The notes under the pieces: model-generated
What the model was told of the DNA's origin: nothing
What the model saw: only the letters and a program-made list of their open reading frames with translations
The model's database searches: none
Position numbers and translations under genes: made by a program
Shown: piece after piece, positions 5,146-23,459 of the stretch
How positions within the stretch are numbered: position 1 is the first letter of the stretch
How the letters are laid out: each line of letters starts with the position of its first letter
Assembly (NCBI GenBank): GCA_902615025.1
Contig: CACMNV010000004.1
Coordinates: forward strand, 9,242 to 73,241
Length of the DNA stretch: 64,000 nt
Direction of reading: 5' to 3'
DNA from: an uncultured SAR116 cluster alpha proteobacterium
Lineage (GTDB): Bacteria > Pseudomonadota > Alphaproteobacteria > Puniceispirillales > Marisalimonadaceae

Positions 5146-5158
5146 AACAATTATCTAT

Positions 5159-8267: not shown

Positions 8268-8801
8268 TTATTTTGTATTTGAAATAATTTCATCAACAAC
8301 ACTATGACCTCTTTTAGCAACTAAAAAAGATCTTACCATATCCATCACAATCAAATTATCTTGATTTTTTCCAATATGTCTAACTCTTACTATTCCTTGG
8401 GTTGGTCTTGATTTAGACTCTCTTTTATCAAGTACCTCTGTTTCAGAATATAGAGTATCTCCAACAAATACTGGTGCGGGTAATTTTATTTCTTCCCAAC
8501 CTAAATTTGCTATTGCTTTCTGGCTAGTACCACTCACGCACATGCCTGTAACCAGTGATAAGGTAAATGCAGAATTTACAAGATAACGTTTGAATTCTGT
8601 TTTAGACGCATAATTAGTATCAAAATGCACAGGATGTGTGTTCATTGTTAAATTTGTAAACCAAATATTATCTGTTTCTGTAATGGTTCGACCTGGCCAA
8701 TGTTCGTAAATGTCACCTACATTGAAATCTTCAAAATATCTGCCTGGATCTTCTCGATATCTATTAGGCCCAACCTTTTTTATTCCAAATAACTCACTCA
8801 T
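8268..8801 (-). CDS. MaoC-like (R)-specific enoyl-CoA hydratase, single hot-dog domain
   Basis: 177 aa with a hot-dog fold pattern (NTHPVHFD...). Zero-nt junction with the upstream lyase gene. Confidence 0.8.
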   Translation of the reverse strand: MSELFGIKKVGPNRYREDPGRYFEDFNVGDIYEHWPGRTITETDNIWFTNLTMNTHPVHFDTNYASKTEFKRYLVNSAFTLSLVTGMCVSGTSQKAIANLGWEEIKLPAPVFVGDTLYSETEVLDKRESKSRPTQGIVRVRHIGKNQDNLIVMDMVRSFLVAKRGHSVVDEIISNTK

Positions 8802-9614
8802 TTAAACCTCTCTCTCAATAATGGACTTAGCTCTTGCCAAAACAGGAGCATCAACCATTTTACCTTCAAAATTAAAAGCGCCAGTACCTGCAGTTTCAGA
8901 TGCTTTTAAAACTCCTTTTGCCCAAATCAATTCTTCATCAGTTGGATTATATGCTCGATGGATAGGTTCAATTTGATCTGGATGAATTGCAAATTTTCCT
9001 TTAAAACCCATTGATTTAATTAGCTTAGTTTCATTAAAACATCCTTCCGCATCACGAAAATCCAACCAAACCCCATCCAAAGCAATAGTGTTGTATAGAG
9101 CTGAGGCATTAACTATTTTACCTCTTGAATAAGCTAGCGAATCTACACTCATATCTCCACCTGTCATAGCTGTAAAGTCAGCAGAACCAAAACCTATTCC
9201 TGAAAAGTTTATACCTTCAACATTCCAAAATTCGATATTAGCAATTCCTTTAGGTGTCTCAATTTGTGGTAGAACTAAAATGTTTGTTCCTAAATCATTT
9301 AAAAAAGATTTACACTCTTTAGCATCTTCAATTTTTGGTATGGCAATAGAATAAGGAAGATTTGGACAATTCTTCAACATTTTAATGTCATCATGATAAT
9401 CATTCGAATCTAAACCATTTATCCTCAGTAAAAATTTCTCTGGTTGATTATTAAAATTGTTTTTTGAAAATTCGATGAAATTTTTACGCCCAAAATCTTT
9501 CTTATCTTTGGCAAGTCCGTCTTCTAAATCAAAAATGACTTTGTCAGAATTTGATGCCAAGGCTTTTGGAACTCTCTCGATTTTATCCAATGGTAAAAAT
9601 AAAATACTCCTCAT
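8802..9614 (-). CDS. HpcH/CitE-like acyl-CoA lyase (citramalyl-/malyl-CoA lyase type)
   Basis: 270 aa. MRSILFLPLDK...SDKVIFDLEDGLA matches the CitE/HpcH N-terminal motif. Confidence 0.85.
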   Translation of the reverse strand: MRSILFLPLDKIERVPKALASNSDKVIFDLEDGLAKDKKDFGRKNFIEFSKNNFNNQPEKFLLRINGLDSNDYHDDIKMLKNCPNLPYSIAIPKIEDAKECKSFLNDLGTNILVLPQIETPKGIANIEFWNVEGINFSGIGFGSADFTAMTGGDMSVDSLAYSRGKIVNASALYNTIALDGVWLDFRDAEGCFNETKLIKSMGFKGKFAIHPDQIEPIHRAYNPTDEELIWAKGVLKASETAGTGAFNFEGKMVDAPVLARAKSIIEREV

Positions 9615-9636: not shown

Positions 9637-10956
9637 TTATTTTAAAAGATTGATAATGTCTTTCGCTCGATTTTTTTCAGGACTTTTAAAAAGATCAAAT
9701 ATTTCATTGGATAGTTTATCAGATAATAAAGAAGAAGATTTAGTTAAAATCTTTTTCTGTAATAATTCATTTTCAATTTTATTATTCAAGTCATGACTGT
9801 TTTTATATATTTCACTACCATCTTTTAATTCAATTAAAGCTTCAGTATTAGTCATTTTATCATTTGGAATGACTTCAACTTTATCACGTGTTTCAACAAT
9901 TTTTTCATTAAAGCAAATTTCATCATTATAACTATCTAGCCTTCCTGTATCAACACCGTGAAGAGACATTGCGGCGGTTAACTTATATGAAAACTTTGCC
10001 TCTAATCCTGTTTTCGGGCTATCAATATTACAAACTTGCAACCAAGAAGGTTGTGTTTGAATTGAAATTTTTTCAATTGAATCTGGATTAAAATTATTTT
10101 TTGTTTTCAATTCGTCCAATGCCTCAAGAAAAGCATGCAAACCATGACAACAAGCATGAAATTTATATTTAATTTCAGGGAATAAAAAATCTTGCCCTAA
10201 AACATTAATTGCTGCCTCAGGCATAGTTTCGTCCCATGCATGTGTCTTCAAAAAACCTTGATTACATTCAATCCCGTTTTCACAACTAACAAAACCTAAC
10301 TTTGACAATTTAGCAGCCTCAATTCCATTTGATGCAGCAATGCCAGCATGAAATGGTTTGCCCATTGTACCAAATTGTGACTTTAAACCTGATGCTCTTG
10401 TTGAAACTATACCAAGTGCATTTTCTATTTGTTTAGCATCTAATTTCAGTAATTTCGATGCAACTAAAGTTGCACCAAAAGCCCCACTGGTAGCTGTTTG
10501 ATGAAAACCTTTGTTATAATGTGAGTAACCAAGGATATGACCTAACCTAGTGGAAATTTCTACACCACACATATAAGCCAACATTATTTCATCAATCGAT
10601 GAGCCTAATTCTTCGCCAAGTGCTAATGCAGTAGGAAAAGCACTAGCCGTTGGATGTCCAGTAAATAAAAAATGAGTGTCGTCATAATCTAGGGCATGAC
10701 CAATAGTTCCATTTACAAAAGCTGCTGATTTAGCTGAAACTTCTTTTCCATTTGAAATTAATCTTGATAGACCTTTAGTTTGTTCTTCATCGATTAATTT
10801 AGTTACAATTTTTGATACTGGCTCTTCTTTTGCTGCATATGCAACACCACACCAATCGATCATTGACATCTTTGAAAAAAATATCATTTCATCATTAAAA
10901 TTTTGTAAGGTAGCCTGTAATACGAAATTACTAAAAATTTTTGTTAAATCTGTCAT
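9637..10956 (-). CDS. MmgE/PrpD family protein, paralog 2
   Basis: 439 aa (GHALDYDDTH, GFHQTATSGAFGA). Embedded in the CoA-ester operon. Confidence 0.85.
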   Translation of the reverse strand: MTDLTKIFSNFVLQATLQNFNDEMIFFSKMSMIDWCGVAYAAKEEPVSKIVTKLIDEEQTKGLSRLISNGKEVSAKSAAFVNGTIGHALDYDDTHFLFTGHPTASAFPTALALGEELGSSIDEIMLAYMCGVEISTRLGHILGYSHYNKGFHQTATSGAFGATLVASKLLKLDAKQIENALGIVSTRASGLKSQFGTMGKPFHAGIAASNGIEAAKLSKLGFVSCENGIECNQGFLKTHAWDETMPEAAINVLGQDFLFPEIKYKFHACCHGLHAFLEALDELKTKNNFNPDSIEKISIQTQPSWLQVCNIDSPKTGLEAKFSYKLTAAMSLHGVDTGRLDSYNDEICFNEKIVETRDKVEVIPNDKMTNTEALIELKDGSEIYKNSHDLNNKIENELLQKKILTKSSSLLSDKLSNEIFDLFKSPEKNRAKDIINLLK

Positions 10957-10967: not shown

Positions 10968-11819
10968 TTAAAACTTTGCTTCTGCTCTCATAGTCACACC
11001 AAATTCTTTTGTTGCACCCCAACAGCTTACTGAACCATCATCCATTTTATCTACACCAACCATATACTCACTATCTGCAAAAACAGGTGCCATGACTTTA
11101 TGAGTGAATGACTTTACTGGCTTACCCATCAATTTTTCAGCAGCTCTTAATAAATAAGTTGCCTGAAGTGGTCCATGTACAATTAAGCCAGGGTAATTTT
11201 CTTCATTAACTGTGTATGGATGATCATAATGAATTCTATGCCCAACAAATCCAATTGCGGAATATCTAAATAATATAGTTGGATGCATAAAAATTTTTTC
11301 GCTTAAATCTGCTTTCTCAGGTATGTCTTTTGAATAACCTGAGCCACCTCCAGACTTTGAAATATCTCTGTAAACAATATTGTGTTTTTCATTAATAGTT
11401 ACTTCATCATTGACTAAGAAATTATATTCTGCTGTTACAAAACATAAAAGACCAGTTCGTCCTTCTTTAACTTGAATGTCAGCTACAGTTGATTGTTTAA
11501 TAACTTTGTCACCTACTCTGATTGGTTTTAAGACTTTAATTTCACTTCCTGCCCACATTCTTCTTGGCAAAGGAACAGGAGGTAAAAATTCACCTAATGC
11601 TGGATGAGAATCTACACCAAGTTCATCATTTTTAACTAAATTCCACCCTAACATCCAATGTAATCCAGAAGTGACTGGATCTCCATCCTTAGGATTTCCT
11701 ATATCCATATTTAGCGTTGCTCTATATCTTTGTTCAACAATTGGTGTTACATAGTCGGTAACATTATCTATTTTTCCGATCCATTTTCTTAAATGATCAA
11801 TATCAACTTTTGTAGACAT
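10968..11819 (-). CDS. two-domain hot-dog hydratase (itaconyl-CoA / mesaconyl-C4-CoA hydratase family, Ich/Meh-like)
   Basis: 283 aa. RRMWAGSEI in the N-terminal half and GHRIHYDHPYT...GLIVHGPL in the C-terminal half, as I recall for the Ich/Meh/HTD2-type family. First gene of the minus-strand operon. Confidence 0.7.
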   Translation of the reverse strand: MSTKVDIDHLRKWIGKIDNVTDYVTPIVEQRYRATLNMDIGNPKDGDPVTSGLHWMLGWNLVKNDELGVDSHPALGEFLPPVPLPRRMWAGSEIKVLKPIRVGDKVIKQSTVADIQVKEGRTGLLCFVTAEYNFLVNDEVTINEKHNIVYRDISKSGGGSGYSKDIPEKADLSEKIFMHPTILFRYSAIGFVGHRIHYDHPYTVNEENYPGLIVHGPLQATYLLRAAEKLMGKPVKSFTHKVMAPVFADSEYMVGVDKMDDGSVSCWGATKEFGVTMRAEAKF

Positions 11820-12015: not shown

Positions 12016-13563
12016 TTGAACGGTGCAGATACTCTAGTAGGGACATTATTAGAAGGTAATGTTGATGTGTGTTTTACAAACCCAGGAACCTCTGAAATGC
12101 ACTTCGTTGCTGCATTAGATAATTATAAAAATATGAGAAGCATTTTATGTTTGTTTGAAGGTTGCGCAACTGGAGCTGCAGATGGATATTATAGAATGAA
12201 AAGATCAGCGGCTTCGACTTTATTACATTTAGGACCAGGATTAGCAAATGGATTAGCAAATTTACATAATGCAAAAAAAGCTAATTCTGGAATTGTTAAT
12301 ATAGTAGGTGAACATGCTCTTGATCATATAAAGTTAAATGCTCCGTTAACCTCTGACATAGAGGGTATAGCGAGACCTGTTTCAAGTTGGATAAAAACTA
12401 GCAAATCATCTAAAGAAATAGGAATGGATGCAGCAGAAGCTATAAAAGCAGCCAATAAAAAACCTGGAGAAATTGCAACACTAATATTACCTGGTGATAC
12501 TGCGTGGAATGAGGGATCAAAAATTGAAGAGGTAATACTACATAATAATACAAAAAAAGTTCCTACAGATTTAATTAAAGAAGCAATATCAGAAATACAA
12601 AAAGCCAATAACCCATTAATACTAGTAGGAGGGCCTGCATTAGAAGAAAATAATCTTGTTAAATTAGCTTTAATAGCAGAAAAGCTTGGATGTGAATTAA
12701 AAACAGACTGGTTTAATGCACGACTAGACAAAGGAGCAGGAAGGATAAATTCAATAAGAATCCCATATGTAGTTGATAAAGCAGTTGAAGCCTTAAAAAA
12801 TTTTGACACTATTGTTAATATCTGTGCCAGACAACCTGTCGCCTTTTTTGCTTATCCTAATAAACCGGGAATTTTAACCCAAGACAAAACAAATTTTATA
12901 GAATTAGCTGAATTATCTGATGATATAAGATCTTTAATCAATGAATTTTCAGATCTTGCAAATGTTACTTCTAAAAACCCTAAAACAATATCAGAATTTA
13001 ATCCACCAGAAATACCTCAAGGTCCAATTAATACAACTTCTCTAGGCATGGCCCTAGGAGCTTTAATGCCAGAGAACGCAATTGTAGTTGATGAGTCAGT
13101 GACAACTGGCAGAGAGTTTTTTTATCAAACTGCAGGTTCTCATCCTCACACATGGTTAAACAATTGTGGAGGATCTATTGGATTTGGTATGCCTGTAGCG
13201 ATTGGCGCGGCAATAGCTTGTCCAAACCAGAAAGTCATTTCTCTTGAAGGTGATGGTAGCGCTATGTATACCGTCCAATCTTTATGGACAATGGCAAGAG
13301 AGAATTTAGATATTGTTATTTTAATTTTTGCTAACCAAAGTTACAAAATTTTGCAAGGAGAATTAAAGAATGTTGGTGTAACAAATCCAGGGAAATCTGC
13401 CATTGAAATGTTGTCACTTAAAAACCCAGAATTAGATTGGACTTCAATATCTAAAGGAATGGGTGTAGATGCAGTTAAAGTAGAAAATATAGAGGATTTA
13501 GTTAAATATTTTAAATATGGAATAAAAGAAAATGGTCCATTTTTAATTGAGGTTTTGATCTAA
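12016..13563 (+). CDS. thiamine-diphosphate-dependent enzyme (acetolactate synthase large-subunit-like / decarboxylase-lyase family)
   Basis: 515 aa. N-terminal PYR domain (GADTLVGTLLEGNVDVCFTNPGTSEMHF) and C-terminal ThDP motif GDGSAMYTVQSLWT...N. TTG start preceded by AGGAGA with a 5-nt spacer. Confidence 0.85.
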   Translation: MNGADTLVGTLLEGNVDVCFTNPGTSEMHFVAALDNYKNMRSILCLFEGCATGAADGYYRMKRSAASTLLHLGPGLANGLANLHNAKKANSGIVNIVGEHALDHIKLNAPLTSDIEGIARPVSSWIKTSKSSKEIGMDAAEAIKAANKKPGEIATLILPGDTAWNEGSKIEEVILHNNTKKVPTDLIKEAISEIQKANNPLILVGGPALEENNLVKLALIAEKLGCELKTDWFNARLDKGAGRINSIRIPYVVDKAVEALKNFDTIVNICARQPVAFFAYPNKPGILTQDKTNFIELAELSDDIRSLINEFSDLANVTSKNPKTISEFNPPEIPQGPINTTSLGMALGALMPENAIVVDESVTTGREFFYQTAGSHPHTWLNNCGGSIGFGMPVAIGAAIACPNQKVISLEGDGSAMYTVQSLWTMARENLDIVILIFANQSYKILQGELKNVGVTNPGKSAIEMLSLKNPELDWTSISKGMGVDAVKVENIEDLVKYFKYGIKENGPFLIEVLI

Positions 13564-13587
13564 TAGATAAATTATTAATATGATTAA

Positions 13588-13941
13588 ATGCCTATTTTAA
13601 AATTATACAAAGATAAAAATATAGATTGTAAAATGGACCTGGTTTCAATTGAGGATTATCTAATCAAAATGATGAATACAGAATTTAACGCTAGGCTTGA
13701 AAATTGCCAAATAATTTGGATAGCCACAGAAATATTAAAATCTGAGTACAAAATTTATGGTGAATTACTTTTACGTAAAAATGAGAACCGTACAAACTTA
13801 ATAAAAAATAATTTTTTAAATAAAATTGGTAAAAAATTATCAAAAAGTTTTTCTACAAATATTAGGTTAAGATCATTTTCAATTAAAGATGAATTAATTA
13901 ATGCGGCACAGATTAAATTAGGGGAAGATGATGACGGATAA
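13588..13941 (+). CDS. hypothetical protein, possible tautomerase-superfamily member (N-terminal Met-Pro)
   Basis: 117 aa beginning MPILKLY. Its end overlaps the next gene by 14 nt (coupled). The fold assignment is inference only. Confidence 0.5.
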   Translation: MPILKLYKDKNIDCKMDLVSIEDYLIKMMNTEFNARLENCQIIWIATEILKSEYKIYGELLLRKNENRTNLIKNNFLNKIGKKLSKSFSTNIRLRSFSIKDELINAAQIKLGEDDDG

Positions 13942-14737
13942 AAACATTGTACTTTGTGAAATAGATAGTAGAGGAATTGCAAATATTCATTTAAACAGAC
14001 CTCATAAAAATAATGCTTACAATGGGGAAATGATTGAGAGATTACTTGAAGTTTTTGAAGGTCTAAGTTCTCATAAATCTCTAAAAGCTATAGTAATAAG
14101 AGGTAATGGAAAACATTTTCAAGCTGGAGCAGATTTAGAATGGTTAAAGGAAATTGGAAAATTAACAAAAGATGAAAATTTCATAGTATCTAAAAAAACT
14201 GCTTTAGCGATAAAAGGTCTAACAGAATTTCCTAGACCCGTAATTTCTATAGTTCATGGTGGTTGCTTTGGTGGTGGAACAGGAATTGTAGCTGCATCTG
14301 ATATTGTAATAGCAGAAACGAAATCAATTTTTTCAATATCGGAAACTCGTTGGGGTGTAATGGCAGGCATAATAATACCTCAACTAAATAAATCCATTGG
14401 AGTTAGAAATGTCAGAAGATATGCAGTTTCTTCTGAGAGATTTAATGCAGATGAAGCCAAAAGAATTGGTTTAGTGCATGAAGTTTTAGATGAACAATTT
14501 ATTGAAGAAAAGTTAGAATCTATTTTAGATCACATTTTATTATGTGGTCCAGAGGCAATTTACCAAACAAAAATGAGAGCTTTAAAAGAAGCAAGCTTGA
14601 TTTTAACCGATAAGGAATTTAATGAATTGGTTGAAGAACATTCACTAAAAAGGATGAGCAATGAGGCTTTTGAAGGTCTAAATAGTTTTTCTGAAAAAAG
14701 AAATCCTTCTTGGTATCCAAAAATAAAGGATAATTGA
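13928..14737 (+). CDS. enoyl-CoA hydratase/isomerase (crotonase) family protein
   Basis: 269 aa. Crotonase oxyanion-hole regions (FQAGADL..., GGCFGGGTGIVAASD) and a methylglutaconyl-CoA-hydratase-like length. Confidence 0.85.
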   Translation: MMTDKNIVLCEIDSRGIANIHLNRPHKNNAYNGEMIERLLEVFEGLSSHKSLKAIVIRGNGKHFQAGADLEWLKEIGKLTKDENFIVSKKTALAIKGLTEFPRPVISIVHGGCFGGGTGIVAASDIVIAETKSIFSISETRWGVMAGIIIPQLNKSIGVRNVRRYAVSSERFNADEAKRIGLVHEVLDEQFIEEKLESILDHILLCGPEAIYQTKMRALKEASLILTDKEFNELVEEHSLKRMSNEAFEGLNSFSEKRNPSWYPKIKDN

Positions 14738-14738
14738 T

Positions 14739-16088
14739 ATGTCATCATTAGTTATTAATTCAAAAATCTGGGGTGAAATGTTTGGTACCAGAGAAATGTC
14801 AGAAATTTTTTCAGATAAAAACACTATACAATATTACCTCGATGTTGAAGCTGCACTTGCTCGAGTTCAATCAAGATTAGGGATAATTCCTAAAACCTGT
14901 GGTTTAGAAATTTCAAAAGTTGCAAAAACAGATTGGATTGACTGGGAATTATTAGAAAAAAGAACTTCTATTGTAGGGTATCCAATTTTACCATTAGTTG
15001 AACAATTAAGCTTAAAAGTAAAAAAGAATTTCGGGCAATATTGCCATTGGGGAGCAACAACACAAGATATAATGGACACAGCTGATGTTTTACAAATTAG
15101 AGATGCTTTATCAATCTTATTATCTGATTTAGTTGGAATTAAAAAAGTTTTAAAAAAACTTGTAAAAAAGTACATCAACACACCAATGTCTGGAAGAACT
15201 CATTTACAGCATGCTTTACCTACTTCTTTTGGCTATAAATGTAGCACATGGTTATCTGGTATTGAGAGACATATTGATAGAATTAAAGAAATAAAAGAGA
15301 GATTATTTTACGTTTCTTTTTTTGGAGCTGCAGGAACTCTTGCCTCTTTAGGAGAGAAAAATGGGCTAAGGACAAAGAACGGACTTGCTAAAGAATTAAA
15401 ATTAAAATCTCCAGATGTGAGTTGGCATTCGATTAGAGATAATTTTTGTGAGTTATCATCTTGGATTTCTCTAGTTAGCGCATCATTAGGTAAAATTGCT
15501 TATGATGTTATGCTAATGATGCAAACTGAAGTACAAGAGGTTAATGAGCCTTTTATTCATGGTAGGGGTTCATCTTCTACTATGCCACAAAAAAGAAATC
15601 CAATTTCATCTGAAGTGATTCTAGCTTGTTCTAAACTTTTAAGAGAACATCACTCTGCTATGCTTGATAGTATGGTATTAGATCATGAAAGAGCTACTGG
15701 TCAATGGCATTTGGAGTGGTACACATTACCTAAAATGTTTATAATTGCCTCTTCTTCATTTCGATGCTCAAGAGAATTATTAGAAGGAATCCAAGTTGAT
15801 AAAAAGAAAATGATAAATAATTTAAATCATACTAACGGACTAATTTTAGCCGAATCTGTAATGATGAAAATTGCTCCAAAACTTGGAAGACAAATAGCTC
15901 ACGATCTAGTATATGATTGCTGTAGAAAATCAATAACTAATAACATGAGTTTACTTGAAACACTAATAATGGATGAAAAAATATCTAAAAATTTTAGAAG
16001 AGAAGAAATAGAATTTTGTTTAAATCCTAAGAATTATTTAGGTGCTGCACCCAGAATGGCAGAAGAACTTTTAAAAAATGTCAAATGA
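14739..16088 (+). CDS. class II fumarase/aspartase-superfamily lyase, 3-carboxy-cis,cis-muconate cycloisomerase (PcaB)-like / adenylosuccinate-lyase-like
   Basis: 449 aa. Has the superfamily signature GSSSTMPQKRNP and WGATTQD, HLQHALP segments. Confidence 0.8.
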   Translation: MSSLVINSKIWGEMFGTREMSEIFSDKNTIQYYLDVEAALARVQSRLGIIPKTCGLEISKVAKTDWIDWELLEKRTSIVGYPILPLVEQLSLKVKKNFGQYCHWGATTQDIMDTADVLQIRDALSILLSDLVGIKKVLKKLVKKYINTPMSGRTHLQHALPTSFGYKCSTWLSGIERHIDRIKEIKERLFYVSFFGAAGTLASLGEKNGLRTKNGLAKELKLKSPDVSWHSIRDNFCELSSWISLVSASLGKIAYDVMLMMQTEVQEVNEPFIHGRGSSSTMPQKRNPISSEVILACSKLLREHHSAMLDSMVLDHERATGQWHLEWYTLPKMFIIASSSFRCSRELLEGIQVDKKKMINNLNHTNGLILAESVMMKIAPKLGRQIAHDLVYDCCRKSITNNMSLLETLIMDEKISKNFRREEIEFCLNPKNYLGAAPRMAEELLKNVK

Positions 16089-16510
16089 AAAACTCTTTAA
16101 ACAAAAATGATTTTTATAATTTTTTAAGTGAGACTTTTCCTCAAGTTTCAAATCTTTTTAAAATAAGAAATTTAACTCCAGGAAATGTATCCTTAGAAAT
16201 GAGTATCAACTATGAACACTTAAGACCAGGTAATACTATATCTGGACCTACAATGTTTCTTTTAGCAGATGTGAGTTTTTATTTATCAATTTTATCTAAA
16301 GTAGGACTTGAGAGCTTAGCAGTTACAACTAATTGTTCAATTGATTTTTTAAGAAAACCATCTGAAAAAAATTTATATAGTCAAAATAGAATTTTAAAAA
16401 TTGGCAAATCTTTATGTGTGGGAGATGTTTTGATATATTCCGTTGATTTGAAAGATCCTGTAGCTCATGCATCATTAACATATTCTATTCCTCCCAAAAA
16501 ATCTTTTTAA
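16085..16510 (+). CDS. PaaI/hot-dog family acyl-CoA thioesterase
   Basis: 141 aa of PaaI-like size and pattern (GNTISGPTMFLLADV). ATGA overlap with the upstream gene. Confidence 0.7.
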   Translation: MKNSLNKNDFYNFLSETFPQVSNLFKIRNLTPGNVSLEMSINYEHLRPGNTISGPTMFLLADVSFYLSILSKVGLESLAVTTNCSIDFLRKPSEKNLYSQNRILKIGKSLCVGDVLIYSVDLKDPVAHASLTYSIPPKKSF

Positions 16511-16559
16511 TGAACAAAAATTCTGTTACGTTTTATTAAATTAAATATTGGAGATTTAG

Positions 16560-17369
16560 ATGAGCTTTGTGAAAACAGAAACAAATGGTCAGATTTTTGT
16601 AATCAGATTAAATAGACCTGAAAGATTAAATGCGCTTAGCACTGTTATTAGAGAGGGAATGGCTGAAGCTTTTACCAAGTTTCATAATGATAATAATTTA
16701 GAAGTTGCTATTTTAACTGGTACTGGAAGAGGTTTTTGCGCAGGCGAAGACATGAAAGAATCGTTAGATAGAGGAATTGCTGGGTCTCCAAAAGAGATGG
16801 TTAAAAAAGATTTAACAAACCCTTTTCAAGATGGGATTTTACAAAAACCTGTAATAGCAGCAGTAAATGGTTTTGCAATGGGAGGAGGTTTCATGCTTGT
16901 TGAAAGATGCGACTTAAGAATTGCAGTGAAAGAAGCTATTTTTGAAATGTCTGAAGCAAAAAGATGGTTGTTAGGAGGATATAATCACGGTCACTATGGT
17001 AACTTACCACATCCCGTAGCTACTGAAATGGCTTTTGGTTACAGAATAAATGCAGAAAGAATGTATCAAGTAGGTTTTGTTAATAGGCTAGTTGACCAAG
17101 AAAATTTAATGGAAAAAGCGCATTCAATGGCAAAGCATCTTCTTTCACTTCCACCAGCCTCAAGAGTTAATACTTTGTACATGATGAAACATATGGCACC
17201 TAAACTACCTTCAAATATAACACATTTAGCAGAAAAACTTCACCTTCATGGCGATACCGAAGATCGAATGGAAAGTAGAAGAGCTTTCGCTGAAAAAAGA
17301 GAACCAAATTATAAAGGATGGTTAAACCCAGATGACAGATACAATATGCCAAAGTTAGAAGAAGAATAA
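16560..17369 (+). CDS. enoyl-CoA hydratase/isomerase (crotonase) family protein
   Basis: 269 aa (RPERLNAL, GRGFCAGEDM, NGFAMGGGFMLVERCD). Confidence 0.85.
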   Translation: MSFVKTETNGQIFVIRLNRPERLNALSTVIREGMAEAFTKFHNDNNLEVAILTGTGRGFCAGEDMKESLDRGIAGSPKEMVKKDLTNPFQDGILQKPVIAAVNGFAMGGGFMLVERCDLRIAVKEAIFEMSEAKRWLLGGYNHGHYGNLPHPVATEMAFGYRINAERMYQVGFVNRLVDQENLMEKAHSMAKHLLSLPPASRVNTLYMMKHMAPKLPSNITHLAEKLHLHGDTEDRMESRRAFAEKREPNYKGWLNPDDRYNMPKLEEE

Positions 17370-17382
17370 AATAGGTCGTAAA

Positions 17383-18594
17383 ATGAATGCAATTAATGGA
17401 GCTTTATCAGGATTAAAAATAGTGGCTTGTTCTACAGCCCAAGCTGGAACTGTGCCATACATGCTCATGGCAGATTTAGGGGCAGATGTAATAAAGATTG
17501 AAACACCTGTCAAAGGAGATAATAACCGTAAATCAGGTTATTTATTTGGAGAAACTAGTTCTTTTTTTGAAACAAACAATCGTGGTGTTAAGAGTTTAAC
17601 TTTAAATCTTAAATCTGAAAAAGGTCAAAAAATTTTACATAAACTTGTAAAAGAAGCCGATATCTTTGGACAAAATTTTAGACCAGGTGTAGCAAAAAAA
17701 CTTAATTTTGATTATGAAACACTAGAAAAAATTAACCCTAAAATCATTTATGCATCTGTTTCAGCCTATGGTCCTGACGCGCCAGATGGTCATTTGCCAG
17801 GCACTGATGCTGTCGGACAGGCACTAAGCGGAATTGCAGAAGCTTATTCTATACCAGGGAACAATTTGAGAACTGGAGTTGCGTCTGTAGCTGACGAAAC
17901 CTGTGCAATTTTAACTTTTGGAGGAATACTTGCCGCATATATTAATGCGCAAAAAACAGGTAAGGGCCAAAAACTAGAAACTTCACTAGTTGGAAGCGCA
18001 TTCAGATTACAGGGCTGGACTATGACAACTTCCATGTGGAGTAATAAACCTCCAATTACTGGCGCAAGGATAAACGGAACAAGAGAACGTCCTGGTATTG
18101 CTGCGTGTTTTAATGACAAAAATGGCAAACCTTTTGCTCTTCAGTTAGAACCTAACAGTTGGTTAGATGCTATGAATGTTTTAGGCTTCAAAGACAATTT
18201 AGAAAAAGATGGTCTATTAGATTTAGGGTTGGCATTTGAATCAGAAGATAAAAAAACCGAGATCTTAGATAAACTAGCAGAGCTCTTTTCAACTAACGAA
18301 AGAGATCACTGGATTTCAATATTAAGAAAAGCTGACAAGATTTCAACCCATGTAAATACAATGTTGGAAGCTTCATTTGATCCAAATATAGTAAATAATA
18401 ATTATGTAACTGAAGTTTGGTATCCTGAATTAAACAAAAATTTAAAAGTACATGGAACTCCTTGGAAGTTTTCTAAAACTCCAGCAAATATTAAAAGAGC
18501 TCCTAAACTTGGTGAACACAATTCAGAAATTCTTAAAAATTTAGGATATACAGATGATGAAATTGAAAATTTAACAAACGAAAAAATTATTTAA
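17383..18594 (+). CDS. family III CoA-transferase
   Basis: 403 aa. LSGLKIVACSTAQAGTVPYMLMADLGADVIKIETP is the family III signature. Confidence 0.9.
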   Translation: MNAINGALSGLKIVACSTAQAGTVPYMLMADLGADVIKIETPVKGDNNRKSGYLFGETSSFFETNNRGVKSLTLNLKSEKGQKILHKLVKEADIFGQNFRPGVAKKLNFDYETLEKINPKIIYASVSAYGPDAPDGHLPGTDAVGQALSGIAEAYSIPGNNLRTGVASVADETCAILTFGGILAAYINAQKTGKGQKLETSLVGSAFRLQGWTMTTSMWSNKPPITGARINGTRERPGIAACFNDKNGKPFALQLEPNSWLDAMNVLGFKDNLEKDGLLDLGLAFESEDKKTEILDKLAELFSTNERDHWISILRKADKISTHVNTMLEASFDPNIVNNNYVTEVWYPELNKNLKVHGTPWKFSKTPANIKRAPKLGEHNSEILKNLGYTDDEIENLTNEKII

Positions 18595-19117
18595 TTTCTT
18601 CAAGCTCTTTTATAAACTTTTTAAAATTATCTACATAATGCTTAGATGATCTAGTCATATCTTTTATCATTTCTGGACTTAATTCTCTTACTGCTTTTGC
18701 TGGAGAGCCAATAATTAACATACCATCAGGAAATTCTTTGTTTTCAGTAACTAAAGCTCCTGCGCCAACAAGACAATTATTTCCGATTTTTGCATTGTTA
18801 AGTATAGTTGCTCCCATTCCTACCAAAGAATTATTTCCAATAGTACAACCGTGAATTATTGCATTATGGCCTATAGTACAATTATTTCCAATTGTTACAG
18901 GAGTATTTGGATCAACATGAATAATTGTATTTTCTTGAATATTAGTTTCATCTCCTATTTTGATGAGATCATTATCACCTCTTAAAACCGAACCAAACCA
19001 AATTCCAACATCCTGACCTAGAATAACATTACCTATGACATGCGCATCTGGTGCCACCCAATAAGAACCTTCAGAAGGTAATTGAGGCTCTTTTTTTCCT
19101 AAATTGTAAATCGGCAT
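18587..19117 (-). CDS. gamma-carbonic-anhydrase-like / left-handed beta-helix (PaaY/CaiE/YrdA family) protein
   Basis: Hexapeptide repeats throughout (IGNNCTIGHNAIIHGCTIGNNSLVGMGA). I prefer ATG at 19117, preceded by GGAGAAAAA, over the track start at 19180. The homologous region begins at MPIYNLG. Confidence 0.85.
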   Translation of the reverse strand: MPIYNLGKKEPQLPSEGSYWVAPDAHVIGNVILGQDVGIWFGSVLRGDNDLIKIGDETNIQENTIIHVDPNTPVTIGNNCTIGHNAIIHGCTIGNNSLVGMGATILNNAKIGNNCLVGAGALVTENKEFPDGMLIIGSPAKAVRELSPEMIKDMTRSSKHYVDNFKKFIKELEEIK

Positions 19118-19281: not shown

Positions 19282-20451
19282 TTAAAAAGGTAATCCAACG
19301 TAATTTTCGGCAAATGATTTTTGAGCGACTTCTGAATTTTCTAAATATTCAATTTCAGTCTCTTGCATTTTTTGGTCAAAATCAGACTGATTGGGAAATT
19401 TATGAAAAGTTACTGTCATCCACCAACTAAATCTAATGGCTTTCCAAACTCTATTTAATGCTCGTTTTGAATATTTAGATAACACCACTTTATTTTTTTC
19501 TTGGTAATATTCCTCTAGGGTCTCAACTAAATAGTTTACATCTGAAAAAGCTAAATTTAATCCCTTCGCACCTGTAGGTGGAACTATATGAGCAGCATCT
19601 CCAACTAAAAATAGATTTCCATAACTCATTGGTTCAACCACAAATGATCTTAAAGGAGCTAGTGACTTCTCTATAGATGGACCTGTTACGAGATTTTCTA
19701 AAGATTCTTCTGGTAATCTTTTTTTTATTTCATTCCAGAAACGATCATCACTCCATTCATTAGTTTTTTCATCAATTGAAGTTTGGATATAATATCTACT
19801 TAAATTTTCATTCCGCATAGAAGCCAGAGCAAAACCTGTTTTATGGTTTGCATAAATTAATTCTTCGCTTATTGGAGGTGTTTCAGATAAAATTCCTAAC
19901 CATGCAAAAGGGTAGACTCTCTCAAAGGTTTTAATTTTTTCTTTAGGAATTGTATTTCTTGAAACACCATGAAATCCATCACAACCTATTATGAAATCCG
20001 CATTAATTTTTGTTTCTTTATCAACGATCTTGCATGTGACGTATGGGCTACTTGTTTCAATTTCATGAATTTTTACATCTTTAACTGAATTAAAAACTTT
20101 ACCATTTTTTTTTTCTCTTAACTCATATAGATCTTTTGTCACTTCTGTTTGACCATAAACAGTGATTTTTTGATTAATCAATTTTTTAAAATCCATTCTA
20201 AATCCACGATTTTTTAAAGACAAAAAAATGCCATCATGAGAAAAACCTTCTTCCTTTATCCTTTTGAAAATTCCTGCCTTTTTAAGTAATTTTATGGTTC
20301 CTTCTTCTAAAACACCTGCTCTTATTCTGGATAAAACATGTTCTTTGGTGTGTTTTTCCAATACTAAACAATCAATATTAATATCACTTAAAAGTTGCGA
20401 CAATAGTAATCCTGAAGGCCCTCCTCCAATGATAAGAACTTGAGTTCTCAT
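19282..20451 (-). CDS. pobA: 4-hydroxybenzoate 3-monooxygenase
   Basis: 389 aa, colinear with Pseudomonas PobA along the whole length as I recall it (MRTQVLIIGGGPSGLLL, RIRAGVLE, VYGQTEVT, CDGFHG, ERVYPF.WLG, LIYANH, LRSFVVEPM, GDAAHIVPPTGAKGLNLA, ENYVGLP). Confidence 0.95.
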   Translation of the reverse strand: MRTQVLIIGGGPSGLLLSQLLSDINIDCLVLEKHTKEHVLSRIRAGVLEEGTIKLLKKAGIFKRIKEEGFSHDGIFLSLKNRGFRMDFKKLINQKITVYGQTEVTKDLYELREKKNGKVFNSVKDVKIHEIETSSPYVTCKIVDKETKINADFIIGCDGFHGVSRNTIPKEKIKTFERVYPFAWLGILSETPPISEELIYANHKTGFALASMRNENLSRYYIQTSIDEKTNEWSDDRFWNEIKKRLPEESLENLVTGPSIEKSLAPLRSFVVEPMSYGNLFLVGDAAHIVPPTGAKGLNLAFSDVNYLVETLEEYYQEKNKVVLSKYSKRALNRVWKAIRFSWWMTVTFHKFPNQSDFDQKMQETEIEYLENSEVAQKSFAENYVGLPF

Positions 20452-20573
20452 AAAAATATCCAGTGAATCTTATTTTTTAATAACAAAAACATATATAAGA
20501 ATTATCATAAATGAATGTTTTATTAAAAATCAAATTGAATTAAAAAATTAATTTTAAATCTTTGTTACGTTTG

Positions 20574-21893
20574 TTAATAAAAAGCCCATAACATTATTAG
20601 AGTAATACTTGGGAAAGAAAATAATAGTATTATTCTGATTATATCACTTAACAAAAAGGGTATAACGCCTTTAAAAGTATCAATTATAGGTACATCCTTA
20701 GCCATTTTATTAATTATAAATACATTCAGTCCAACAGGTGGAGTTATTAAACCAACTTCAACAACAACTAGAGTTAATATTCCAAACCAAATTGCTGTTT
20801 CTTCTGGAGATAATCCAAAATCAAGTGACATCACTAAAGGAAAAAAAACTGGGATTGTTAACAATATCATTGCTAAACTATCCATTAAACATCCTAAGAA
20901 CAGATATAAAATCATAATACATGCGACAACTATTAAAGGTTCTAAATTATTTTCTTTTGAAAATTCAGTTAATAAATTTGGAAGCTGAGTTAAAGCAATA
21001 AAAGAATTAAAAAATTCTGCACCTAATAAAACAAAAAATATCATTCCTGTTGTAACTGCTGTACTTTCAATAACCTCAATAAATGACTTTATATTAAATG
21101 ATTTATTTGTAATGGCTATAATACCGGTTCCTGCAGCACCAATTGCAGCACCTTCAGTAGGTGTAAAAAAACCCATGTAAATTCCACCAATCATGACAAC
21201 AAAGATCAAGATTATATGCCAAATATTTTTAAATAAATACATACGGTCTTTCCAAGTAACTCTATCTTTAATTGGTCCAGAATTTTGGTTTAATCTGACA
21301 TATAAACTAATTGCAACTACATAACCTAAGGCAGCAAGTAAACCAGGTATGAAAGCGCATAAAAACATTTTAGCTATGTTTTGTTCAGTCAGAATAGAAT
21401 AGATTATTAATATAACTGAAGGAGGAATTAAAATGCCTAGAGTTCCCCCCGCAGCTAATGCACCAGTACTTAGCGCTCCTGAATAGCCTAATCTTCTTAA
21501 TTCTGGCAAGGCTACTTTTCCCATGGTTGCTGCAGTTGCCAATGATGATCCACAAATTGCGCCAAATCCAGCACATGCTCCAACGGCAGCCATAGCAACG
21601 CCCCCTTTTCTATGTCCTAAACATGCACCGGCAAACTTAAACAATGCTTCACTCATACCAGCTTTAGATGCGAAATTTCCCATAAGTAAAAAAAGTGGAA
21701 TAACTGAAAGAGAGTAATTTGAAAATAAATGCCATGCACTTGTTTTAGCCAGAGACATAATAGGAAGCCAACCTGTAATTAAAATTGTACCAGTACATCC
21801 AACTAATAACATGGCTAAACCAATAGGAACTCTGAATGCTAAAAGTGAAAATAGAATTGGGAAAGCTAGAATACCAAGAATATATTTGTCCAT
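20574..21893 (-). CDS. TRAP transporter large permease (DctM family)
   Basis: 439 aa polytopic protein with DctM-like motifs (GAICGSSLATAATMG, ILIPPSV). Confidence 0.9.
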   Translation of the reverse strand: MDKYILGILAFPILFSLLAFRVPIGLAMLLVGCTGTILITGWLPIMSLAKTSAWHLFSNYSLSVIPLFLLMGNFASKAGMSEALFKFAGACLGHRKGGVAMAAVGACAGFGAICGSSLATAATMGKVALPELRRLGYSGALSTGALAAGGTLGILIPPSVILIIYSILTEQNIAKMFLCAFIPGLLAALGYVVAISLYVRLNQNSGPIKDRVTWKDRMYLFKNIWHIILIFVVMIGGIYMGFFTPTEGAAIGAAGTGIIAITNKSFNIKSFIEVIESTAVTTGMIFFVLLGAEFFNSFIALTQLPNLLTEFSKENNLEPLIVVACIMILYLFLGCLMDSLAMILLTIPVFFPLVMSLDFGLSPEETAIWFGILTLVVVEVGLITPPVGLNVFIINKMAKDVPIIDTFKGVIPFLLSDIIRIILLFSFPSITLIMLWAFY

Positions 21894-21895
21894 GA

Positions 21896-22426
21896 TTAAC
21901 TTCTCGATAGAACTAATTCATGATAAAATGTGTATAAACAGCATGCAGATAATAATCCAAATGAAAATGACACTGGCAAAAAGGGTATCCAAATTGGAAA
22001 TTGTAGTAACATAGTTTCTTCTTGATAATTATACATGTCTCTTGCTCCGAAAAACATCCTCCAAGTAAAGAACAAGGCTATAAGTCCATAAATAACTGAG
22101 CTAATACAATCTAAAAAAGCAATTTTTTTGAAATTTAATTTTGCAGTTATGAAATCTACAATAACATTACCTTTTTTTAAATGGCATAAAGGTAAAAAGG
22201 AAGATATCGCAATTGCACTACCAATTTCAACCAATTCAAAATCACCCACTAGAGGATTTAAGAGTATAATTCTACTTAATATTGAAATAAAGTTAATTAA
22301 AATAACAATGACAAGAATTATACCTCCTAAAATAGCCAAGATATAAGCTAAATCATATAAAAAACGACCAAATTTATCATTTGGTCGTTCTGTAAGTTCA
22401 TCAATAGGATTATTTGATGAACTCAT
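21896..22426 (-). CDS. TRAP transporter small permease (DctQ family)
   Basis: 176 aa with four TM segments. Lies between the DctP and DctM genes with 2-4 nt gaps. Confidence 0.75.
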   Translation of the reverse strand: MSSSNNPIDELTERPNDKFGRFLYDLAYILAILGGIILVIVILINFISILSRIILLNPLVGDFELVEIGSAIAISSFLPLCHLKKGNVIVDFITAKLNFKKIAFLDCISSVIYGLIALFFTWRMFFGARDMYNYQEETMLLQFPIWIPFLPVSFSFGLLSACCLYTFYHELVLSRS

Positions 22427-22430
22427 TTAA

Positions 22431-23459
22431 TTATAGTGATTTTTCATATTTTGAAATTAAGCTTTTTGCTGTATCTAAAAGTTTTTGAGCGTCTAAACCT
22501 TTTTTATTAGTACTCTTAATCCAATCTTCAGTTACTTTTTTTCCAGCAGCTTTCATTTTAGCTAGTTCTTCACCTTGTAAAGTAAAAAACTGTCCGCCAG
22601 CATTTACAGCTAATTTTCTTGCAGGAACTTCAAAGCCGTCCCAAAGTTTACCTGCCTCTTTTGCTAAAGATAAACCCGAATTATTGTCAATAACCTTTTT
22701 TTGTGATGGTGATAAACTCTCATACTTTGCTTTATTCATTATGAATAAAAAAGGTGTTGTATATAAACCTCTATTACCTGCAACATTAGTATGTGCTTTT
22801 GTTAATTCTTGCAATTTAAATGAAGGCATAATTTCCCAAGGCACAACCATTCCATCAATTACTCCTTTTGACAATGACGGGGCAACTTTTGGAACTGGCA
22901 TCCCGACTGGAGTGGCACCCATACTTTTAAGCATAGTTGTAATTACTCTTGTAGGACCTCTCATCTTCATCCCTTGAAAATCACCAATAGACTTAATCAG
23001 CTTATTTTTTGTATGTATCATACCAGGAGCGTGCACATGAACTGTTAAGATTTTATAATCTTTTAGATCTTCTGCTCCTATGGTTTCTACATACTCCTGA
23101 ACCGCTTGTGATGTTATTACTGATTTTGTTGGCAAAAATGGTAATTCAAAAGCTTCAAGTCTTGGAAATCTTCCTGGTGTATAACCCGCAACTGTCCAAA
23201 CTATGTCTACTACCCCTTCTCTAACTTGATCAACTAGCTGGGGTGGCTTTCCTCCAAGTTGCATAGAATAATACATCTCGGTTATAATTTCACCATTTGA
23301 TTCTTTTTTTACTTTTTCTGCCCACGGCAAAACAAATTTTGCATTAGAGTTAGCTGGTGCAGGAACAAATGTATGAAATTTCAAAGTTACCTTATCAGCT
23401 AGTGCAGAAAATGAAAAAAAAGTTAATGATAAAATAATCATTTTTATAAGCATTTTCAT
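22431..23459 (-). CDS. TRAP transporter substrate-binding protein (DctP family)
   Basis: 342 aa with a signal peptide (..FSALA/DK). DctP core with MKMRGPT (conserved Arg). Confidence 0.85.
   Translation of the reverse strand: MKMLIKMIILSLTFFSFSALADKVTLKFHTFVPAPANSNAKFVLPWAEKVKKESNGEIITEMYYSMQLGGKPPQLVDQVREGVVDIVWTVAGYTPGRFPRLEAFELPFLPTKSVITSQAVQEYVETIGAEDLKDYKILTVHVHAPGMIHTKNKLIKSIGDFQGMKMRGPTRVITTMLKSMGATPVGMPVPKVAPSLSKGVIDGMVVPWEIMPSFKLQELTKAHTNVAGNRGLYTTPFLFIMNKAKYESLSPSQKKVIDNNSGLSLAKEAGKLWDGFEVPARKLAVNAGGQFFTLQGEELAKMKAAGKKVTEDWIKSTNKKGLDAQKLLDTAKSLISKYEKSL

Follow-up and report, generated by a model that had tools for sequence, protein, structure and literature searches.

In a 64,000-nt stretch of DNA from an uncultured SAR116 cluster alphaproteobacterium (hereafter the window, to which all coordinates refer), seven consecutive genes on the plus strand were read in a first-pass annotation as one tightly coupled operon, a candidate CoA-dependent route for a ring-fission product or another unsaturated dicarboxylate. 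Here we describe this run, the catabolic island in which it lies and the lyase at its centre. Families were called with Pfam and NCBIfam, using the equivalog cut-offs of the latter, and from sequence matches to the PDB, and scores are given in bits. All seven open reading frames (ORFs) were reproduced in our ORF list on the plus strand with the coordinates, junctions and family calls first given to them. The Pfam and NCBIfam models bore out a thiamine diphosphate (ThDP)-dependent enzyme, two crotonases (a and b), a Lyase_1/ADSL_C lyase, a 4HBT hotdog protein and a family III CoA-transferase, together with a gamma-CA/PaaY/CaiE-like hexapeptide protein and pobA beyond the run. The genes of the run and the convergent gene that follows it are these:

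12016..13563, plus strand: ThDP-dependent enzyme of the PRK07586 family, benzoylformate-decarboxylase-like (NCBIfam, PDB)
13588..13941, plus strand: tautomerase-superfamily ('Pro1') protein of a sequence-orphan family (AlphaFold2 model, Foldseek)
13928..14737, plus strand: crotonase-a, methylglutaconyl/gamma-carboxygeranoyl-CoA hydratase-like (Pfam ECH_1, NCBIfam, PDB)
14739..16088, plus strand: aspartase/fumarase-superfamily lyase of the Tad1/3c8t/CMLE branch (PDB, NCBIfam, tree)
16085..16510, plus strand: hotdog-fold (PaaI-like) thioesterase (Pfam 4HBT), in ATGA overlap with the lyase gene
16560..17369, plus strand: crotonase-b, a generic enoyl-CoA hydratase/isomerase (Pfam ECH_1, PDB)
17383..18594, plus strand: divergent family III CoA-transferase, Frc/SUGCT-like (Pfam CoA_transf_3, PDB)
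18587..19117, minus strand: left-handed beta-helix (LbH) protein, gamma-carbonic-anhydrase/PaaY/CaiE-like (Pfam Hexapep, NCBIfam)

The junctions between the seven ORFs measure, in order, +24, -14, +1, -4 (ATGA), +49 and +13 nt, and the convergent hexapeptide gene, whose 176-aa form (18587-19117) agrees with its orthologues, overlaps the end of the CoA-transferase gene by 8 nt. The ThDP gene starts with TTG, with AGGAG 6 nt upstream. Sharing one strand, with short gaps and no internal terminator, the seven genes look like an operon, and their co-transcription is plausible on this layout. Promoter and terminator scans of 11700-19400 gave the same counts as shuffled controls. The median same-strand gap is 7 nt in the run and 17 nt window-wide, same-strand runs of 7-9 genes are common and ~91% of the genome is coding; since such close packing is usual in this genome, the tight spacing of the seven genes is not distinctive. 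Base composition carried no foreign-origin signal for the ThDP gene.

A search with the lyase led to the identification of 51 loci in species-representative genomes of low-GC SAR116 (Puniceispirillales), and every window gene was mapped onto all of them. The lyase is 89-97% identical to that of the window in eight of these loci and about 67-72% identical in the others. According to the tables of a preprint (10.64898/2026.07.17.739263), the single amplified genomes (SAGs) nearest to the window (AG-919-I05, AG-903-E20 and AH-287-A08) belong to subclade IIb and the group at about 70% identity to subclade IIa. The mapping outlined four conserved parts: (a) the tautomerase-like protein, crotonase-a, the lyase and the thioesterase; (b) crotonase-b, the CoA-transferase and the convergent hexapeptide protein; (c) a divergently oriented series of a two-domain MaoC hydratase (MaoC2), a PrpD-family protein, in some loci a CoA-transferase, an HpcH-type lyase, a single-domain MaoC, a CoA-transferase and a tripartite ATP-independent periplasmic (TRAP) transporter; and (d) TauD, TctCBA and a further PrpD-family protein. 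The gaps from the lyase gene to those of crotonase-a and the thioesterase are ~27 nt or less in nearly all lineages; the thioesterase gene lies 3' of the lyase gene in every locus examined, with crotonase-a beside the lyase in nearly all. The convergent arrangement of the hexapeptide gene is kept throughout, and no unit is better conserved than the trio of crotonase, CoA-transferase and LbH protein (71-98% identity; 82-98% across SAR116 for crotonase-b).

The run as a whole fared differently. The ThDP gene is present in 8 of the 51 loci and absent from the other 43, and in 39 of 48 loci the thioesterase and crotonase-b genes are split by ~2 kb of opposite-strand genes. This splitting pair consists of a class III alcohol dehydrogenase, S-(hydroxymethyl)glutathione dehydrogenase (TIGR02818, 608 bits against a cut-off of 544), and an esterase; it is a formaldehyde-detoxification pair (frmA/frmB-like) that lies at 11780-13713 in one locus (L002) and is found likewise in 38 others. 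In addition, pobA adjoins the hexapeptide gene in only six loci. Because of the distribution of the ThDP gene, the split between thioesterase and crotonase-b and the rarity of the pobA adjacency, we conclude that the seven-gene 'operon' is a subclade-IIb-specific juxtaposition of smaller conserved units and not an ancestral operon. There are three such units: the ThDP 2-oxoacid-decarboxylase-like gene, a late add-on; a conserved core of the tautomerase-fold protein, crotonase-a, the lyase and the thioesterase; and crotonase-b with the CoA-transferase and the convergent PaaY/CaiE-like gene. They sit in an island of ~35 kb that is kept throughout SAR116 subclade II and that includes a divergent itaconate-type module and a tripartite tricarboxylate transporter (TTT). 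The idea of a single seven-gene unit was thus not sustained, and synteny, proposed earlier as a check on the seven families, held across SAR116 for the modules but not for the whole set. Outside SAR116, lyase relatives of 55-59% identity (eight loci) had no neighbours in common with the island, ORF calling being poor in these high-GC genomes. We also observed that in L028 (AG-321-A13) the block of TRAP, CoA-transferase and MaoC genes is inverted relative to the other loci.

The first-pass annotation was silent on the divergent module, which is the strongest functional clue in the island. Its genes are the following:

10968..11819, minus strand: MaoC2, a homologue of the P. aeruginosa-type itaconyl-CoA hydratase (PDB)
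9637..10956, minus strand: MmgE/PrpD-family protein (Pfam MmgE_PrpD_N and MmgE_PrpD_C, PDB)
8802..9614, minus strand: HpcH/CitE-type acyl-CoA lyase, (S)-citramalyl-CoA lyase-like (Pfam HpcH_HpaI, NCBIfam)
8268..8801, minus strand: single-domain MaoC hydratase, RipB/Ich-like (NCBIfam; Pfam MaoC_dehydratas and MC_hydratase)
7048..8250, minus strand: family III CoA-transferase of the dicarboxylate type, Ict-like (Pfam CoA_transf_3, 353 bits)
3862..6926, minus strand: TRAP transporter DctP, DctQ and DctM, the end of the module, kept in all SAR116 loci (Pfam)

The only PDB matches of MaoC2 were 8khg and 8huc, both itaconyl-CoA hydratase (168 bits, full length). The best NCBIfam models were RipB_Ich for the single-domain MaoC (233 bits against a cut-off of 340), RipC_Ccl for the HpcH lyase (163 against 375) and, below their cut-offs, the succinate-glutarate and succinyl-CoA:mesaconate CoA-transferases for the Ict-like protein. 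The PrpD-family protein at 9637-10956 matched B. subtilis 'IRG1' (167 bits), IDS epimerase (143) and cis-aconitate decarboxylase (86) in the PDB; the MmgE/PrpD member of the Pseudomonas itaconate cluster is a methylsuccinate isomerase (PMC12290011). The module resembles the itaconate/methylsuccinate clusters of P. aeruginosa (PA0878-PA0886) and C. necator (PMC12290011), in which a family III CoA-transferase, MaoC, a CitE/HpcH lyase, PrpD and TRAP genes are likewise clustered, but differs from them in its scores below the equivalog cut-offs, the lack of an acyl-CoA dehydrogenase and the presence of both Ich types together. The divergently linked Tad1/CMLE-family lyase, the tautomerase-fold protein, the two crotonases and the thioesterase are found only on the SAR116 side of this comparison. 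The window holds three MmgE/PrpD paralogues within 32 kb, at 1133-2515 (minus strand), 9637-10956 (minus strand) and 30821-32191 (plus strand); the second and third are ~26% identical, and none of the three had an NCBIfam match at E<=1e-25. Exact-protein look-ups of the first of them and of an amidase of the window returned no record.

A second instance of a related lyase beside such genes lies on plasmid pCB82_1 of Bradyrhizobium sp. CB82 (NZ_CP121651.1, 338991-344580; L061), where LysR, dctA, a PaIch-type MaoC, a CaiB-type CoA-transferase, a CoA-ester lyase and a Tad1-like lyase follow one another. The terminal lyase is 59% identical to Tad1, and no pca genes are annotated nearby; the MaoC, CoA-transferase and CoA-ester lyase share 37%, 30% and 33% identity with their counterparts in the window, MaoC2, the CoA-transferase and the HpcH lyase. 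We predict that this operon converts trans-aconitate by way of itaconate into pyruvate and acetyl-CoA; a literature search found no published account of a bacterial Tad1-type route. With the SAR116 island and the Bradyrhizobium operon, this branch of lyases is repeatedly paired with an Ict/Ich/Ccl-type module. Other members of the branch stand in unrelated contexts, for example with a fumarase and a dicarboxylate symporter, or as a lone gene.

The lyase itself had been called PcaB-like. It does belong to the same superfamily branch as PcaB, but the name is too narrow, as it is nearer to Tad1 and 3c8t than to any carboxymuconate lactonizing enzyme (CMLE). Its PDB matches were 3c8t (445 bits), U. 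maydis Tad1 (404, full length), two CMLEs (329 and 316), CreD (220) and adenylosuccinate lyases (190 or less); 3c8t is a structural-genomics 'fumarate lyase' entry and Tad1 is PDB 9h3i (PMC11880804). The lyase stayed below every PcaB cut-off (PRK09053, 452 against 595; TIGR02426, 329 against 356; PRK05975, 242 against 371). On the first two models Tad1 scored 459 and 325, and since this proven decarboxylase scores alike, the PcaB models say nothing about PcaB function here. In a neighbour-joining tree without bootstrap support, rooted with the PcaBs of the R. johnstonii pcaDCHGB and D. deserti pcaD-HG-B-thiolase-CoA-transferase operons, the genuine PcaBs fell outside a clade made up of Tad1 with the Bradyrhizobium lyase, the 3c8t group, and the SAR116 clade with its sister group of 55-59% identity. 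The window lyase is 30% identical to the R. johnstonii and 38% to the D. deserti PcaB.

Mutagenesis of Tad1 marked Q152, S320, S321, R360, T362, W365 and W369 as important, and the alanine mutant of Ser320 was inactive (PMC11880804). All seven of these residues are kept in the window lyase. The Ser320 position holds Ser only in Tad1, its Bradyrhizobium orthologue and SAR116, Ala in the 3c8t-like and other non-canonical groups, and Gly or Thr in PcaBs. The SAR116 proteins are nevertheless not Tad1 orthologues, as their clade is sister to a different group and Tad1 pairs with the CB82 lyase (59%). Judged by these comparisons, the lyase falls in the Tad1/CMLE branch as a non-canonical enzyme and is no canonical PcaB. 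With Tad1 it shares the aspartase/fumarase branch, the tested residues and an association with itaconate-type genes; the fungal enzyme, however, is biosynthetic and works with a PrpF-type isomerase, Adi1, whereas in SAR116 the setting is catabolic and the tautomerase-fold protein is the candidate isomerase. With PcaB it shares the superfamily branch, and pobA and pcaHG lie nearby, but it is co-operonic with a crotonase and a thioesterase, and the window has no pcaC, pcaD, pcaIJ or pcaF. Orthology with PurB or ArgH, which, joined to a lack of conserved linkage, had been named as a finding that would undo the earlier proposal, was rejected on scores of 285 against 326 (purB) and 78 against 280 (argH).

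The 'Pro1' protein had no Pfam, NCBIfam or PDB sequence match, even when searched by family profile; its Pfam matches were sub-threshold (CHMI, E=0.15; DUF1904, E=0.085), and, of 1.84 billion proteins, only 28 clusters at 50% identity make up its family. An AlphaFold2 model built from a 12-sequence alignment (pLDDT 90, pTM 0.81) has a beta-alpha-beta-beta-alpha-beta topology, with strands at 3-9, 41-47, 54-63 and 91-99 and helices at 18-33 and 70-88. Among the 50 best PDB matches listed by Foldseek, almost all were tautomerase-superfamily proteins and a few were designed proteins (TM 0.60-0.74, E down to 2.6e-7); they include fused 4-OT, cis-CaaD, Cg10062 and Ps01740. The N-terminus MP[SVI]L[IK]L is kept in orthologues only ~40% identical, and MP[SVI]L in nearly all the SAR116 orthologues that we extracted. 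In the family alignment Q41, R63, R68, R95 and F97 are invariant and P2 nearly so, which together with the fold of the predicted model upheld the original call. On the strength of this model the protein is a sequence-orphan member of the tautomerase fold. It resembles the superfamily (fused 4-OT, cis-CaaD/Cg10062, MSAD, MIF) in its predicted double beta-alpha-beta fold, its N-terminal proline and arginines like those of carboxylate-binding members, and differs from it in lacking a significant sequence match and in forming a tiny, lineage-restricted family. Remote homologues were found on contigs of 0.7-1.7 kb whose flanks match nothing in the window.

Among the remaining enzymes of the run, the ThDP enzyme aligned end to end with PRK07586 (698 bits against a cut-off of 363), and its best PDB match was benzoylformate decarboxylase (~148 bits). 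No Oxc model appeared among the 25 best NCBIfam matches listed, which began with PRK07586 and then benzoylformate decarboxylase, and its plasmid homologues (47-51% identity) stand in heterogeneous, uninformative contexts. By sequence the enzyme thus appears benzoylformate-decarboxylase-like, neither Oxc nor HACL, within an uncharacterized PRK07586 family. For crotonase-a the best NCBIfam model was PRK05674 (191 bits, below the cut-off of 426), and the PDB matches were 4kpk and 3i47, two unnamed enoyl-CoA hydratases, and 4zu2, an isohexenylglutaconyl-CoA hydratase; it appears closest to 3-substituted glutaconyl-CoA hydratases. Its match to the p-hydroxycinnamoyl-CoA hydratase/lyase model was weak (117 bits against a cut-off of 276). 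The best PDB matches of crotonase-b scored ~100-110 bits and include 3-hydroxypropionyl-CoA dehydratase. Both crotonases presumably lack the first Glu of GGGxE (GGGTG and GGGFM) and keep the second (SE...G), motifs that suggest a non-canonical crotonase chemistry.

Likewise, the thioesterase matched Pfam 4HBT at 27 bits and TIGR00369 and PaaD weakly, below their cut-offs. The CoA-transferase of the run matched Pfam CoA_transf_3 at 285 bits, stayed below the cut-off of every NCBIfam equivalog and was matched in the PDB by Frc (148 bits) and SUGCT (142 bits); it had no plasmid homologue above 35% identity and no close cultured homologue. The hexapeptide protein scored 167 bits for gamma-CA, 124 for PaaY and 97 for CaiE, all below the cut-offs. 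In architecture, the crotonase, CoA-transferase and LbH trio is shared with CaiB/CaiD/CaiE of carnitine metabolism, and this part of the analogy drawn in the first-pass annotation stands; all three proteins nonetheless scored far below the Cai cut-offs (CaiB, 93 against 413; CaiD, 111 against 500; CaiE, 97 against 305). The phenylacetate genes paaF, paaG, paaI and paaY offer a similar likeness, with two crotonases, a hotdog thioesterase and an LbH protein serving a CoA-ester pathway for a dicarboxylic intermediate. The island differs from both systems in its low scores and in lacking paaABCDE, paaZ, paaH, paaJ, caiA, caiC, caiT and a betaine transporter.

Beyond the hexapeptide gene, the window continues with aromatic and transport genes and with a pair that had gone unmentioned in the first-pass annotation, pcaG and pcaH on the minus strand:

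19282..26853: aromatic block of pobA, a second TRAP transporter, a BphC-like dioxygenase, an MhpA-like hydroxylase and a second extradiol dioxygenase (NCBIfam)
26898..32191, plus strand: TauD-family dioxygenase, tripartite tricarboxylate transporter TctCBA and the third PrpD-family protein, beside the hexapeptide gene in most SAR116 loci (Pfam)
35549..36827, minus strand: pcaG and pcaH, protocatechuate 3,4-dioxygenase (TIGR02423, 158 against 126 for pcaG; TIGR02422, 293 against 296 for pcaH)

In the window, pcaG and pcaH are flanked by a DUF4149 gene and a gene with a cNMP-binding domain. As had been noted before, no pcaC, pcaD, pcaIJ or pcaF was found in the 64 kb, nor a thiolase, and pcaHG has neither pcaB, pcaC nor pcaD as a neighbour. 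The distance from pobA-pcaHG to the island is 4-17 kb in each of the seven SAR116 lineages examined (L020, L031, L067, L068, L069, L076 and L077), again without a neighbouring pcaB, pcaC or pcaD. The order in these lineages is DUF4149, pobA, pcaH, pcaG, cNMP-binding, FMO-like, YdjM and, optionally, PrpD, TctABC, TauD and an enolase-superfamily gene, then the hexapeptide gene, the CoA-transferase and crotonase-b, and onward to the thioesterase and lyase. In one of them (L077, GCA_902556795.1) pobA is split into ORFs of 90 and 263 aa, by a frameshift or a sequencing error. Most IIa lineages carry the enolase-superfamily gene (MR_MLE_C) between TauD and the hexapeptide gene (L014, 16480-17574; L068, L069), but the window lacks it; the gene product reached no more than 89 bits on the model for the muconate cycloisomerase subfamily (cut-off 335).

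The block that contains pobA in the window (TIGR02360, 609 bits against 539) and the MhpA-like hydroxylase (NF004829, 467 against 390) occurs in only six loci and is absent from L011 and from all IIa loci. As in the order just given, pobA lies directly upstream of pcaH in other SAR116-II lineages (L067, 5549-6718; L068, L069, L076). Its position beside the hexapeptide gene in the window clade is a lineage-specific rearrangement or insertion, and the flanking pobA, offered earlier as evidence for a ring-fission product or another unsaturated dicarboxylate as substrate, loses that value.

The lyase has also entered pathway reconstructions under another name. In Table S6 of the same preprint (10.64898/2026.07.17.739263), K01857 ('pcaB') is scored as present in 6 of the 11 genomes that have pcaGH and in none of the 34 that lack it; three of the K01857-positive columns could be named, all of them IIa genomes, and IIb genomes score 0. 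JGI also names the IIa lyase a CMLE, and 34 of the ~40 named island-bearing SAGs appear in the PcaH table of the preprint. By our own reading of the table, the 'pcaB' present in IIa and missing in IIb is the same orthologous lyase on either side of the KOfam threshold, and from this KEGG-based table we infer that subclade II has no PcaB-like gene besides the island lyase. The subclade III/IIc arrangement, with canonical pcaBCD, was also sought, and the five PcaH relatives obtained were all subclade-II-like.

Taken together, these genes probably form a catabolic island of modular build, in which an unsaturated or branched di- or tricarboxylate would be broken down in a CoA-dependent manner. Among the candidate substrates we favour 3-carboxy-cis,cis-muconate, because no other enzyme for it was read in these genomes and because the lyase gene is coupled to those of CoA enzymes instead of pcaC or pcaD. 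In this reading, to which we give a probability of roughly 0.4, the island would be a non-canonical CoA-dependent lower pathway for the 3-carboxymuconate made by PobA and PcaHG. The earlier proposal of a CoA-dependent route remains plausible, with pcaHG now also in the window, but the substrate may be a tricarboxylate as well as a dicarboxylate.

PobA and PcaHG would make 3-carboxy-cis,cis-muconate, an unsaturated tricarboxylate, on which the lyase would take the first committed step, a cycloisomerization possibly joined to a Tad1-like vinylogous decarboxylation. The tautomerase-fold protein would then move the double bond or ketonize the product, a family III CoA-transferase would form the thioester, the crotonase and MaoC hydratases would add water, and the CitE/Ccl-like lyase would split off acetyl-CoA; the hotdog thioesterase and the PaaY-like protein may salvage CoA from dead-end esters. 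3-Carboxymuconyl-CoA can be regarded as an analogue of mesaconyl-C4-CoA, whose hydration and Ccl-type cleavage would give acetyl-CoA and a conjugated 2-oxo-acid, a product that would suit tautomerase-type and benzoylformate-decarboxylase-type enzymes. Alternatively, the lyase may lactonize its substrate, with a Tad1/PcaC-like vinylogous decarboxylation to follow. Spelled out in full, the protocatechuate route of SAR116 subclade II (the low-GC 'Levibacteraceae', which abound in the surface ocean) would have a Tad1/CMLE-family lyase (possibly both cycloisomerase and decarboxylase) and a tautomerase-fold enzyme in place of PcaB, PcaC and PcaD, and itaconate-like CoA enzymes in place of 3-oxoadipate, its succinyl-CoA transferase and thiolase; we regard this most specific version as rather unlikely.

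Several points weigh against 3-carboxymuconate as the substrate. Gene content, family and fold assignments and synteny are observations, whereas what the substrate is, in which order the steps follow and what each enzyme catalyses are deduced from homology and synteny. At 44% identity to Tad1 and 37-38% to long-type PcaBs, the lyase sequence is decisive for neither activity. Tad1-type decarboxylation needs an sp3 carboxymethyl group, which 3-carboxymuconate lacks, although 4-carboxymuconolactone has a formally analogous beta,gamma-unsaturated carboxylate. In AG-343-O03 (L044/L069) 218 nt separate MaoC2 from crotonase-a and the tautomerase-like gene is missing, so that at least one lineage appears to do without this gene. 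Neither a thiolase nor a dehydrogenase is encoded in the island, and the TRAP and TTT importers beside the module suggest an externally supplied acid. Genes for HGPRT, bactofilin and DHDPS are as syntenic with pcaHG as the island is, and the proximity of pcaHG may therefore reflect the general conservation of gene order in a streamlined clade; the co-occurrence of island and pcaHG is, moreover, one lineage and one evolutionary event. The SAGs are 50-75% complete, and canonical pcaB, pcaC and pcaD may lie elsewhere in the genomes; pcaC-like and pcaD-like hits have in fact been reported in them (10.64898/2026.07.17.739263). Since these hits occur in pcaGH-negative genomes too, according to the same preprint (10.64898/2026.07.17.739263), they are unspecific.

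The strongest competitor to the 3-carboxymuconate reading, possible though on balance unlikely, is the catabolism of an imported acid of the aconitate/itaconate family, unrelated to protocatechuate. Here the TRAP and TTT systems would import trans- or cis-aconitate, itaconate, mesaconate, citraconate or methylsuccinate; the lyase would decarboxylate like Tad1 to itaconate or an analogue, the tautomerase-fold protein would isomerize, for example from cis to trans, and Ict/Ich/Ccl-like enzymes would yield pyruvate (or oxaloacetate) and acetyl-CoA, unless crotonase-a hydrates aconityl-CoA to citryl-CoA. The lyase, nearer to Tad1 than to any CMLE and with all the tested Tad1 residues including Ser320, is consistent with this, as are the divergent module with both Ich types and Ccl-like, Ict-like, PrpD and TRAP genes, the tricarboxylate transporter, the likeness of crotonase-a to 3-substituted glutaconyl-CoA hydratases, and the Bradyrhizobium operon, in which a Tad1 orthologue is joined to homologues of MaoC2, the CoA-transferase and HpcH with no pca genes annotated nearby. 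Yet the SAR116 lyase is no Tad1 orthologue (44%) but a separate clade whose nearest relatives stand in unrelated contexts, and the Ich, Ccl and Ict scores are below the equivalog cut-offs. An aconitate/itaconate route would also leave pcaHG without a PcaB-like partner in these genomes and the move of pobA next to the operon unexplained, and we found neither evidence that such acids matter in the open ocean nor literature on the use of itaconate or aconitate by SAR116.

An ordinary beta-ketoadipate pathway is improbable. A divergent PcaB would feed canonical PcaC, PcaD, a CoA-transferase and a thiolase encoded elsewhere, and its neighbours would be unrelated genes kept by streamlining. The pcaC-like and pcaD-like hits (10.64898/2026.07.17.739263) fit this picture, close packing and long same-strand runs are usual here, and the insertion of the formaldehyde-detoxification pair indicates that unrelated genes can enter the island. 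However, the hits are unspecific and neither gene lies beside pcaHG in the seven lineages examined, the lyase is under both PcaB cut-offs and scores equal to Tad1, a proven non-CMLE, and genuine PcaBs are an outgroup with Gly or Thr where the lyase has the essential Ser of Tad1. The translational coupling of the lyase to a crotonase and a thioesterase in all lineages is likewise at odds with a stand-alone PcaB.

The chances are slimmer still that the island is an aromatic upper pathway, in which the CoA-transferase, crotonases and thioesterase would shorten a hydroxycinnamate-type side chain to give 4-hydroxybenzoyl-CoA and then 4-hydroxybenzoate for PobA and PcaHG. 4-Hydroxybenzoyl-CoA thioesterases are found among PaaI-type hotdog thioesterases, crotonase-a has its weak match to p-hydroxycinnamoyl-CoA hydratase/lyase (117 against 276), and pobA and the MhpA-like hydroxylase adjoin the operon in the window clade; but the lyase, the tautomerase-fold protein and the itaconate-type module would be left without a role, the island has no dehydrogenase, thiolase or aldehyde dehydrogenase, and most lineages with the core lack the aromatic block. 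Finally, an Oxc/Frc- or HACL-type pair of ThDP enzyme and CoA-transferase, or a carnitine CaiB/CaiD/CaiE system taken literally, as the first-pass annotation had drawn them in analogy, is very unlikely: the window has a ThDP enzyme and a family III CoA-transferase in one run, and conservation is highest for the crotonase, CoA-transferase and LbH trio, but the pairing occurs in 8 of 51 loci and the ThDP gene is missing from 43, its product is PRK07586/benzoylformate-decarboxylase-like with no Oxc model among the 25 best matches listed, and with Cai scores of 93, 111 and 97 bits against 413, 500 and 305 and no betaine transporter, CaiA or CaiC, the model scores and the ThDP distribution largely refute membership of these families.

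SAR116 bacteria are among the most abundant heterotrophs of the surface ocean, and marine dissolved organic matter plausibly contains 4-hydroxybenzoate, protocatechuate and small carboxylic acids. Our literature search found no published description of this island, nor of itaconate or aconitate use by SAR116. The island brings together three uncharacterized enzyme groups, namely the lyase subclade, the orphan tautomerase-fold family and the PRK07586 ThDP family. Current reconstructions count one and the same gene as 'pcaB' in some genomes and as a 'missing pcaB' in others, while the lyase sits in a CoA-ester island. Candidatus Levibacter sp. Uisw_134_01 (L041; NZ_CP159808.1), which is cultured and has a closed genome, carries the island (PMC12421898, PMC12509534), and its function is therefore open to experiment. 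If the island processes what PcaHG makes, a very well-studied aromatic route would gain a new variant, and the predicted end products and energy yield would change; if the route is instead of the aconitate/itaconate type, it would add a new substrate class for oligotrophic bacterioplankton and extend Tad1-type chemistry to bacteria.

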